Source of the DNA: Escherichia phage vB_Eco_mar004NP2 | Sequence record: NC_048205.1 | Direction: 5' to 3' (one strand) | DNA: 64,000 nt | In this document: piece by piece, positions 55,547 to 60,460 of the stretch | Numbering within the stretch: the stretch's first letter is position 1 | Layout: every line of letters starts with the position of its first letter | Notes under the pieces: model-generated | What the model saw: the letters and a program-made list of their open reading frames with translations, nothing else | What the model was told of the DNA's origin: nothing | Database searches by the model: none | Position numbers and translations under genes: made by a program

Positions 55547-55969
55547 ATGAGTACTGAAAATAGAGTTATAGACTTAGTAATAGATGAAAAAGTACCTTAT
55601 GGTCTAATGATGCAATTCTTAGATGTTGATGATAGTACTTATCCACCTACAAATACCCCTGTTAACTTAACAGGGTATTCCCTAAGGGGTACTATAAAGG
55701 CGGGGCTTGATGAGAACGCGGAAACTTTGGCATCTTTTACTACTAAAATTATTGATGCTGCTCAAGGTGCTATAGCTATAAGTTTACCTGTAGAGGCGGT
55801 AGATAATATTGGTGAAAAAGCTACCAAAGAGAGAGATAAGTATAACCCTCGCCAACGTTTTGCAGGATACTATGATATAATTATGACACGAGATGTCATA
55901 GGATCAGCTATTAGCTCTTTTCGTATAATGGAGGGTAAAGTATTTATCAGTGATGGGGTAACTAGATAA
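55547..55969 (+). CDS. collar / fibre-attachment protein (p132-like)
   Basis: 140 aa immediately upstream of L-shaped fibre gene. Confidence 0.45.
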
Positions 55970-58359
55970 TGGCAATAACTACTAAGATTATTGTACAACA
56001 AATATTAAATATTGATGATACTAAAGCTACTGCTAGTAAATTTCCTAGATACACAGTAACTCTTGGAAATTCTATTAGCTCTATTACTGCTAATGAGTTA
56101 GTATCTTCTATAGAGGCTGCTGCTAAATCTGCTGCGGCTGCAAAAGATTCTGAAATAGCTGCTAAAACCTCAGAACTTAATGCTAAGAACTCTGAACAGA
56201 AAGCTGCTATTTCTGCTGGAGCTTCTGAAGCTTCTGCTACTCAGTCTGCTACCTCTGCTACTCAGTCTGCCACTTCTGCTACTAAATCCGCAGAATCAGC
56301 TGCAGCTGCAAAAACCTCTGAAACCAATGCTAAGTCTAGTGAAACAAAAGCTAAAACTAGCGAAACTAATGCAAAAGCTAGTGAAACAAAAGCTAAAACT
56401 AGCGAAACTAATGCAAAAGCTAGTGAGGATAAGGCAAAGGCTAGTGAAACCAACGCTGCTGCTTCCGCTGCTGCTGCAAAAATTAGCGAAACTAACGCTA
56501 AAATTAGTGAGACTAATGCTGCTGCGTCTGCTGCCGATTCTAAAGGTTTTAGGGATGAAGCAGAAACATTCGCTAGACAAGCTGCAACATCTGCATCCGC
56601 TGCTAAAGTATCCGAGACTAATGCAAAAGCTAGTGAGACTAAAGCCAAAGCTAGTGAGACTAAAGCCAAAGCTAGTGAGACTAACGCAGCTAGTTCCGCA
56701 ACTTCAGCTAGTCAGTCAGTAACTACTATTCAAGGCTTAAAATCAGATGTTGAGCAGCTAAAATCAGATACTCAGGCCATTAAAAACAGTGCTGTAACAG
56801 AGACAACAGCTATAAAGGCAGATGTTGCGCAGTTAAAAACAGACACACAAGGCATTAAGAATAGCGCGATAACAGAAACTACCACGCTAAAAAACCAAGC
56901 TGCTAATTCTGCAACTAGTGCTGCTAATTCTGCTACTGAAGCAGGAAAACAAGCTACTAATGCTGCTAATAGTGCTAATACTGCTAAAACTGAAGCCGAT
57001 CGTTCAAAAACTGAGGCTGATAGATCAGAAGCTGCTGCTAATTCTACCCCCGACATTCAACCTCTTCCAGATGTATGGATACCGTTTAACGATTCTCTAG
57101 ATATGATCACCGGCTTTGCGCCAGGCTATAAAAAAATAACAGTCGGTGATGAGGAAATAACACTGCCCAGTGACAAGATTGTTAGCTTTACACGTGCATC
57201 AACTGCGACATATATTAATAAATCAGGTGTATTAACTGTTGCGGGGATTGATGAACCTAGATTTGAAAAGGATGGTTTGCTCATTGAGGGGCAAAGAACT
57301 AACTATCATCTTAACTCACTTACGCCATCTAAGTGGGGAGCTACAACAAGTGTAACTATAACAGAAAGTGGTGTTGATGAGTTTGGATTTACTTATGGGC
57401 GGTTTCAAATAAAGGACGAAAAAATTGGGACAAATACGGCAATGAATATCGCTGCGATTTCAGGAGGAAGAGGTGTCGATGTTACCGGAACTGAAAAGTA
57501 TGTTACAACATCATGTCGTGTAAAAAGCGATAGTGCTAATATACAATGTCGTATAAGATTTGAAAGATATGACGGATCCGCATATTTTTATCTAGCAGAT
57601 GCATATCTTAATATAACAGATATGTCCATTAGAAAAACGGGAGTAGGGGCTGCAAGAATAACCGCCCGAGCGGAGAAAGAATCTAATGGATGGATTTATT
57701 TCGAGGTTACATATCAATCTGAAGCTATTGATAATATGGTTGGCTCTCAGATCCAAATTGCTCCACCTGTTTCACCTGGCACTTATTCTGGTGGAGAGTA
57801 CTTACAGGTAGCTACCCCTCAAGTTGAAGGCGGGGCGTGCGCTTCATCGTTTATTATTACAGAAGCGACTCCAGTAACACGGGCAAGCGATATGGTCACA
57901 TTACCAATAAAAAACAACCTTTACAATTTGCCGTTTACAGTACTTGTGGAAGCTCATAAAAACTGGAGTATAACGCCAAATGCAGCGCCACGTGTTTTTG
58001 ATACCAGCGGTCATCAAACCGGAGCGGCTATTATTCTTGCTTTCGGATCTGCCGAAGGCGATAATGATGGTTTCCCTTATTGCGATATAGGTAAATCAAA
58101 CAGAAGGGTTTACGAGAATGCAAAACTAAAAAAGATGATCATGGGAATGAGAGTAAAGAGTGATTACAATACTTGCTGTGTAAGTAATGCCAGAATATCA
58201 AGCGAAACAAAAACGGAATGGAGATACATACAATCAACGGCTACTATAAGGATTGGAGGACAAACAACTACGGGCGAACGTCATCTTTTCGGGCACGTTA
58301 GAAACTTTAGAATCTGGCATAAGGAACTAACTGATAGACAAATGAAGGAGTATGTATGA
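55969..58359 (+). CDS. L-shaped tail fibre protein A: tandem KxSETNAK repeats, C-terminal lectin-like domain
   Basis: about 300 aa of (K/A)(A/T)SETNAKASETKAK repeats; C-terminal part resembles concanavalin-type lectin fold; no C-terminal chaperone domain. Confidence 0.6.
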   Translation: MAITTKIIVQQILNIDDTKATASKFPRYTVTLGNSISSITANELVSSIEAAAKSAAAAKDSEIAAKTSELNAKNSEQKAAISAGASEASATQSATSATQSATSATKSAESAAAAKTSETNAKSSETKAKTSETNAKASETKAKTSETNAKASEDKAKASETNAAASAAAAKISETNAKISETNAAASAADSKGFRDEAETFARQAATSASAAKVSETNAKASETKAKASETKAKASETNAASSATSASQSVTTIQGLKSDVEQLKSDTQAIKNSAVTETTAIKADVAQLKTDTQGIKNSAITETTTLKNQAANSATSAANSATEAGKQATNAANSANTAKTEADRSKTEADRSEAAANSTPDIQPLPDVWIPFNDSLDMITGFAPGYKKITVGDEEITLPSDKIVSFTRASTATYINKSGVLTVAGIDEPRFEKDGLLIEGQRTNYHLNSLTPSKWGATTSVTITESGVDEFGFTYGRFQIKDEKIGTNTAMNIAAISGGRGVDVTGTEKYVTTSCRVKSDSANIQCRIRFERYDGSAYFYLADAYLNITDMSIRKTGVGAARITARAEKESNGWIYFEVTYQSEAIDNMVGSQIQIAPPVSPGTYSGGEYLQVATPQVEGGACASSFIITEATPVTRASDMVTLPIKNNLYNLPFTVLVEAHKNWSITPNAAPRVFDTSGHQTGAAIILAFGSAEGDNDGFPYCDIGKSNRRVYENAKLKKMIMGMRVKSDYNTCCVSNARISSETKTEWRYIQSTATIRIGGQTTTGERHLFGHVRNFRIWHKELTDRQMKEYV

Positions 58360-58634
58360 GAGATATAATCCTAAAATTCACGGATAAATCAGCATATAAA
58401 GATTTTCTCTTAAAAATAGAGTGGGATACTAATGAAAATTTGCAAAACCAAATAATGCTTGACGAAATTGGATATACTTATACTGAAATCTCTCCGCTAG
58501 GTGATGAGGAACCTAGATGCATCCGTAATGAAGGGTATTATATTAATGTAAGGATTCTTGATGAATCCTTTACTTACGAATCCTTCGAGCCTTTTATAGT
58601 TCAGCTAGAACAGCCTCTTAGAGTATGGGCATAA
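58356..58634 (+). CDS. small acidic protein between fibre genes (possible adaptor or chaperone), 92 aa
   Basis: ATGA overlap with upstream fibre gene. Confidence 0.4.
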   Translation: MRDIILKFTDKSAYKDFLLKIEWDTNENLQNQIMLDEIGYTYTEISPLGDEEPRCIRNEGYYINVRILDESFTYESFEPFIVQLEQPLRVWA

Positions 58635-58643
58635 GGTTTTATA

Positions 58644-60413
58644 ATGGTAACTAAAACAGTAATTCCTACGGATATTACAAAACTTAAAAATGAGTCACTT
58701 AATAAAAATAATAACCTGAGTGACTTAGCAGACCGTGCAGCAGCATGGCTAAATGTGCGTCCTATTGGATCTACCCCTCTTGCTGGAGATCCTGTTAGTG
58801 ACTATGATGCCGCAACTAAGCGTTGGGTGGAGAACAAACTTAATACTGGCACAGTAGGACCCACAATGAATGGTGTTATGAACTACGGGGTGGGGGATTT
58901 TCATCTTCGAGATAGCCGTGCGTATATTCAACCTTATGAGGTAGTTTCTGATGGGCAGCTTCTTAACAGGGCTGACTGGCCTGAACTTTGGGCGTATGCA
59001 CAAATGGTTGGAGCTATAGATGATTCAGTTTGGTTAGCAGATGTAGGACAACGTGGGAAATATTCTACGGGAGATGGTACCACTACTTTCCGCGTCCCAG
59101 ATCGTAATGGTGTGCAACTAAATTCAATCAAAGGGTTATTCGCTCGTGGTGACGGTGGGGGGGATGCTGGTCAAGCTGGTTCAATATCAGAAGCTGCAGC
59201 ACCCAATATTACTGGTAGTTTTCCTGGCGCTATTGCTGGTGCATATGAAGAAGCGCTTAATAGATATTCATCTAGATTTGGTCTTATTGGGGCGATTGGT
59301 GGTGAAAACGGCTTAGGTGCCGCTCCTGGAGGTGCATCTAAATCATTCGCCGTAGTTAATCCTGATAACCAATACGGATTTAGTTTTGATGCAAACTTAG
59401 CGGACCCTGTTTATGGGCGTTATGGAATAAAAGGTACTATTATTCCAAACAGCTTTATAGGTGTCTGGGTAATCCGTGCTTCTGGTGGGTTCGTGGCTGC
59501 AAAGACTTCGTGGAGTGTTATTAGTGGTGATGCTGTCAAACCTAATACTGGTACTACTGTTTATGGCGGGAGTGTACTATCTGAGTATAAAGTAGGTACT
59601 AGTAGTGAGGCTGTAAGTACACTACGAGCTAAAGCTACTATTGGTGGCACCTACTCTACTGAACTACTAATAGACAATAAATCTACCGGTAAATCGAATT
59701 CCGCCCAGCTTGTAGATAATGGGGATTTTGTAACGGATCGTTTTAAAGCTAGATTAGTTACTGGCATGGCGTGGTCTCAGACTGGCTGGGTACAAGGTAC
59801 TCTTTCTCAGAACGAGGTCAATATAGGTAGTACATTTAACTTTAATAGTATATTGAGCGGTTCCCAGTCTTCTTCCGCAGGGTATAAGACATCTGCACAT
59901 TTTGGATTAATTCATAATGACTTAGGCTCATTTGCAGATTCTTGTTGGCAGGTAGCGGGAGATGATGATAATAAATTTGGTGTGCGTTTAAAAATTCAGC
60001 CGAATAATAATAGTATTTATTTTTATTCTTGGTGGCCAGGTGCTTCAGCAACCTATACTTTGCAATTAAATGCTGTATCTGATTCTCGCTTAAAGCATGA
60101 TATTAAGGCTATAGACGCAACTAAGTCCATCGAGGTATTAAAAGGATTAGAATTCCAATCCTTTGTATATAATAACGATGAAAAATCTCGTGTCCGACGT
60201 GGGGTTATTGCTCAGCAAGTAGAGACTATAGAACCACTTTATGTAAAAACTAGAAAATTTTATAATGATGACGGAATAGAGCAGGAGCAAAAGGAATTAG
60301 ATACAACTCCAATGCTTCTTGACACTATGCATGTTGTGCAAGATCTTATTAAACGGATTGAAGATCTAGAGAAAGAGCTTGAGCAATTAAAGGTACAATT
60401 AGTATCACAATAA
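58644..60413 (+). CDS. L-shaped tail fibre protein B with C-terminal intramolecular chaperone (S74-like autoproteolytic) domain
   Basis: C-terminal LQLNAVSDSRLKHDIKAID...LEFQSFVYN motif typical of self-cleaving fibre chaperone domains, followed by coiled coil. Confidence 0.6.
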   Translation: MVTKTVIPTDITKLKNESLNKNNNLSDLADRAAAWLNVRPIGSTPLAGDPVSDYDAATKRWVENKLNTGTVGPTMNGVMNYGVGDFHLRDSRAYIQPYEVVSDGQLLNRADWPELWAYAQMVGAIDDSVWLADVGQRGKYSTGDGTTTFRVPDRNGVQLNSIKGLFARGDGGGDAGQAGSISEAAAPNITGSFPGAIAGAYEEALNRYSSRFGLIGAIGGENGLGAAPGGASKSFAVVNPDNQYGFSFDANLADPVYGRYGIKGTIIPNSFIGVWVIRASGGFVAAKTSWSVISGDAVKPNTGTTVYGGSVLSEYKVGTSSEAVSTLRAKATIGGTYSTELLIDNKSTGKSNSAQLVDNGDFVTDRFKARLVTGMAWSQTGWVQGTLSQNEVNIGSTFNFNSILSGSQSSSAGYKTSAHFGLIHNDLGSFADSCWQVAGDDDNKFGVRLKIQPNNNSIYFYSWWPGASATYTLQLNAVSDSRLKHDIKAIDATKSIEVLKGLEFQSFVYNNDEKSRVRRGVIAQQVETIEPLYVKTRKFYNDDGIEQEQKELDTTPMLLDTMHVVQDLIKRIEDLEKELEQLKVQLVSQ

Positions 60414-60416
60414 AAG

Positions 60417-60460
60417 AAAACCCCAGTGGACAAAATCCACTGGGGTTTATTATTTATTTT
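60417..60460. terminator. bidirectional terminator between convergent fibre and dut genes
   Basis: hairpin AAACCCCAGTGGA-CAAAA-TCCACTGGGGTTT, T-rich on + and A-rich upstream. Confidence 0.7.

Follow-up and report, generated by a model that had tools for sequence, protein, structure and literature searches.

The fibre locus of Escherichia phage vB_Eco_mar004NP2 raises the question of how two large proteins and a small one, encoded side by side, could make up the lateral tail fibre of a T5-like phage. In the window (the whole 64,000-nt stretch of DNA analysed, record NC_048205.1), the three open reading frames lie on the + strand at positions 55969-58359 (796 AA), 58356-58634 (92 AA) and 58644-60413 (589 AA), exactly where and of the size that the first-pass annotation had placed them. 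The stop codon of the first and the start codon of the second share an ATGA, giving a 4-nt overlap, and a 9-nt spacer precedes the third. Immediately 5′ of the 796-AA frame is ltfC (p132; 55547..55969, +), which belongs to the context of the finding; its 140-AA product (Pfam LtfC PF23926, E 8e-15; phrog_34807, ‘collar tail protein’) is the anchor of the lateral fibres. A bidirectional terminator-like hairpin (60418..60448) separates the fibre operon from dut, which is convergent with it; its stem of 13-14 bp includes 7 G-C pairs, and the tails are T-rich on either strand. The locus is the side (L-shaped, lateral) tail fibre module of a Tequintavirus, a T5-like phage. The three genes are alike in Salmonella phage PMBT29 (locus 99.9% identical) and in E. 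coli phage IrisVonRoten (Bas32; 92.7% nucleotide identity), and an identical three-ORF layout was found in SPLA5b, AKFV33, JenP2, tinuso and dozens of IMG/VR contigs as well as in these two, which bears out the earlier proposal of a lateral fibre formed by two large proteins and a small one. The arrangement that we favour, with a probability of about 0.8, is a fibre running end to end from a proximal fibre through the small protein to a distal fibre, of the type found in Bas32.

The 796-AA product corresponds to the proximal fibre gp22 of Bas32 (phrog_1419, E 1e-264; segments 91–95% identical in amino acids), and mass spectrometry has placed its AKFV33 homologue, ORF137, among the virion proteins. 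Residues 1-215 match residues 1-230 of DT57C LtfA (8hqz_d; E 1.5e-36), with 55% identity over AA 1-188 of this anchor and coiled-coil region, and residues 1-59 are invariant across 12 relatives except at two positions. The N-terminal ~205 AA also match phrog_24369 (E 5e-51), a tail-fibre profile of 1396 positions, the length of T5 Ltf; this part is homologous to phage T5 pb1 (Ltf, 1396 AA), whose gene likewise follows ltfC. DT57C has a branched lateral fibre of LtfA, LtfB and LtfC (Golomidova 2016, PMC4728585; Ayala 2023, PMC10713586; PDB 8hqz), and cryo-EM of that phage has shown the LtfA N-terminus threading into the LtfC ring. By this homology AA 1-40 (55969..56088, +) would be the anchor, and three 796-AA chains would each be inserted in the LtfC collar by their N-terminal ~40 residues.

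From there the proximal chains would extend outward as a shaft of ~315 residues (AA 41-355; 56089..57033, +), rich in Ala, Ser, Thr and Lys and presumed to be a trimeric alpha-helical coiled coil. Identity at lag 7 was 0.48–0.51 for AA 41-262 and 0.25 for AA 263-370, compared with ~0.03–0.2 at other lags, and tandem repeats of period 21/42 were reported by TRF. An earlier description of ~300 AA of near-perfect KxSETNAK repeats was overstated: heptad periodicity does run through AA 41-355, but SETNAK-type heptads (SE[TD][NK]A[KA]) number 13, in three blocks (AA 117-165, 173-186 and 215-242). They are encoded by 21-nt tandem and dispersed DNA repeats (56307..56729, +; repeat family D1, 9 copies at 21-nt spacing, and TRF), and a further unit of ~24 AA is present twice at about AA 257-304. 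The expectation that the repeats are a hotspot of length variation was confirmed, as proximal fibres of relatives range from 557 to 796 AA and differ in length by in-frame indels found only inside AA 60-325, one deletion taking out exactly 16 heptads (AA 60-171). Repeat-mediated in-frame indels would in this way alter shaft length.

Each proximal chain would end in a knob of ~430 residues (AA 360-796; 57046..58356, +), for which Pfam detected neither an intramolecular chaperone nor a Peptidase_S74 domain, as in the rest of the 796-AA protein. The conservation profile shows conserved flanks (AA 360-444 and 621-796) around a core, AA 438-639 (57280..57885, +), that is the most variable segment of the knob. 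Judged from its 2514 homologues, which carry varied N-termini (PF08400 among them), the knob is a portable module, attached in other phages and prophages to fibre N-termini of other types. The lectin-like C-terminus claimed at first sight was supported by several searches: the NCBIfam model GTA_spike_fiber (NF048003) matches AA 438-639 with 58 bits (cut-off 36), and phmmer aligned AA 405-654 with the head-spike fibre of the Rhodobacter gene transfer agent (RcGTA; Rcc01080, PDB 6tb9; E 5e-9). An AF2 monomer model of the knob had a mean pLDDT of 54.6 and was confident only for AA ~449-619 (mostly 73–93), and Foldseek matched this confident core weakly to CBM4, other carbohydrate-binding modules and legume lectins (E 5e-3 to 3e-2, probability at least 0.9), suggesting a lectin- or CBM-like beta-sandwich. 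Because the core is homologous to the RcGTA fibre, which binds capsular polysaccharide, it is probably a first glycan-binding site of the fibre. In RcGTA the protein is monomeric (325 AA) and sits on capsid vertices, whereas here the domain lies within the C-terminal part of a tail fibre trimer.

The knob is genetically linked to the 92-AA protein (58356..58634, +; phrog_1361, E 2e-32; gp23 of Bas32), whose gene stands directly 3′ of the knob in all 86 loci that carry it. Some ~70 of these are lambdoid prophage loci in which nothing similar to the 589-AA fibre occurs; the prophage loci with full flanks have no large fibre-like ORF immediately downstream, and the sampled prophage versions lack a distal fibre 3′ of the cassette. 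A phylogeny of the knob did not separate loci with a distal fibre from those without. The 92-AA family has 315 homologues, with a functional name in none of the 120 listed, and AF2 predicts a confident alpha/beta fold (pLDDT 85). Since the protein adjoins the knob in 86/86 loci, including prophages without a distal fibre, we infer that it serves the knob as an assembly factor; coupled translationally to the knob and co-inherited with it, it would most likely aid knob folding or assembly or stay on as a cap, its gene being placed as tfa is beside stf in lambdoid phages. A possible though less likely role is that of a structural adaptor, a permanent part of the joint to which the distal fibre binds, rather than a folding factor. 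The position of the gene between the two fibre genes, overlapping the one by 4 nt and 9 nt away from the other, is consistent with this, as is the last residue of the protein: all 11 sampled loci with a distal fibre (the window included) have Ala there, whereas 10 prophage loci that lack such a fibre have Ser or Phe. That signal, however, is confounded with phylogeny, the protein is equally conserved in the ~70 prophage loci, and the AKFV33 gel bands yielded only ORF137, with no proteomic support found for the 92-AA protein.

The 589-AA product (58644..60413, +) is 85% identical to Bas32 gp24, a T-shaped distal fibre, and ~54% identical to the fibres of Wifcevirus Bas98-101. It opens with a ‘plug’ of 22 residues, MVTKTVIPTDITKLKNESLNKN (58644..58709, +), whose motif M[VAT]T.T.IP.DIT.LK is shared by 13 loci of T5-like, Drexlerviridae and Nonagvirus phages, and is kept only in distal fibres positioned after the knob and 92-AA cassette; sequence comparison found it in neither LtfA nor LtfB of DT57C. 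A conserved stem common to LtfA and LtfB follows (AA 23-120; 58710..59003, +), which from AA 31 is 87–100% identical to five relatives and DT57C LtfA and 77–100% to LtfB. Variable cassette 1 (AA 121-270; 59004..59453, +) is only 27% identical to Bas32 over AA 181-270, with flanks of ~100%, and gave a weak Pfam Collar match at AA 139-156 (E 0.044, under the cut-off). Cassette 2 (AA 301-478; 59544..60077, +) is 100% identical to Bas32 and 7–43% to AKFV33, L010 and DT57C. By analogy with the Bas32 paper the two are presumed to be a gp12-like RBD1 and a T5-like RBD2. More than one receptor-binding module, as first suggested, is plausible. The chain closes with an intramolecular chaperone (AA 479-589; 60078..60410, +), beginning at the SDSRLKHDI motif that had been noted before (AA 479); Peptidase_S74 matches AA 479-531 (46.9 bits, cut-off 22, E 3.4e-12), and the region matches the C-terminus of S16 gp37 (6f45). 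T5 Ltf also has a C-terminal Peptidase_S74 chaperone on its receptor-binding chain, although there the fibre is a single polypeptide without the lectin-like knob and the 92-AA gene.

Could the two large proteins form independent fibres, the 589-AA one sitting on the tail tip by itself and acting apart from the 796-AA one? Contact between them is not directly evidenced in this analysis, but we consider this very improbable: sequence comparison revealed no T5 Ltf or LtfA anchor in the 589-AA protein, the plug accompanies the knob and 92-AA cassette even where tail tips are unrelated (Drexlerviridae, Nonagvirus), and the homologous segment of DT57C forms one covalent chain with the anchored shaft. 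Very improbable, too, is the DT57C-type branch proposed by the first-pass annotation, in which the 796-AA and 589-AA proteins would represent LtfA and LtfB, the latter attached laterally to the former via phiEco32 gp14/gp15-like modules. Two large fibre genes do follow ltfC as in DT57C, and the 589-AA protein is 57% identical to LtfB 206-528. Yet the match of the 796-AA protein to LtfA is confined to its N-terminal ~202–215 AA, with nothing like the gp14-like dock (LtfA 223-471) and no Peptidase_S74 domain, the first 22 residues of the 589-AA protein are unlike the gp15-like N-terminus of LtfB, and this protein aligns over its whole length with LtfA 511-1073 (44% identity; phmmer E 6e-135 to 526-1072) through stem, receptor-binding region and chaperone. 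Because both docking modules are absent and the 589-AA protein is equivalent to distal LtfA, we prefer the end-to-end arrangement to a side branch; what is one 1076-AA chain in DT57C is split here, and the proximal half ends in the lectin-like knob with its 92-AA partner. That an error of assembly or annotation, an indel between 58359 and 58644, has split what is really a single long ltf gene is extremely improbable, since the 92-AA ORF in between is a conserved family with a confident predicted fold and many genomes of independent origin show the layout. Broken fibre genes do occur in GenBank records of some relatives, the distal gene being annotated as three CDS in mar004NP2 and as two in KS_S14.

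The locus is mosaic. The knob and 92-AA pair is shared with AKFV33 (ORF137/136/135, a fibre reported in 2012 as two-protein), Drexlerviridae, Nonagvirus and lambdoid prophages, and in the lytic phages among them the distal fibre bears the N-terminal plug as here, whereas anchors, shafts and distal receptor-binding regions differ. Closest is Bas32, with the same gene order (gp22-gp23-gp24) and 796 and 92 AA in both. Its gp22 has a galectin-like C-terminal domain, its gp24 two receptor-binding domains, and it uses the O16 O-antigen (Humolli et al. 2025, PLoS Biol, PMC11990801); gp23 goes undiscussed in that paper. The knob is 95% and the 92-AA protein 92% identical to Bas32, and plug, stem, RBD2 and chaperone are 97–100% identical. 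Only RBD1 of the distal fibre differs, cassette 1 (AA ~121-270) having been swapped and the chain being 15 AA longer overall (589 vs. 574 AA); as this cassette is replaced, the glycan specificity here is probably not O16.

In the assembled fibre, the plug of the distal part would dock to the knob, to the 92-AA protein or to both; this part would carry the conserved stem and two exchangeable receptor-binding cassettes, and shed its C-terminal chaperone after trimerising. Such a fibre may reversibly bind O-antigen or another surface polysaccharide, which would let the phage cross the polysaccharide layer before pb5 engages the outer-membrane receptor. The three-gene architecture is real and ordinary, having already been published for the close relative IrisVonRoten (2025); the small addition made here is the constant link of the 92-AA protein to the knob.

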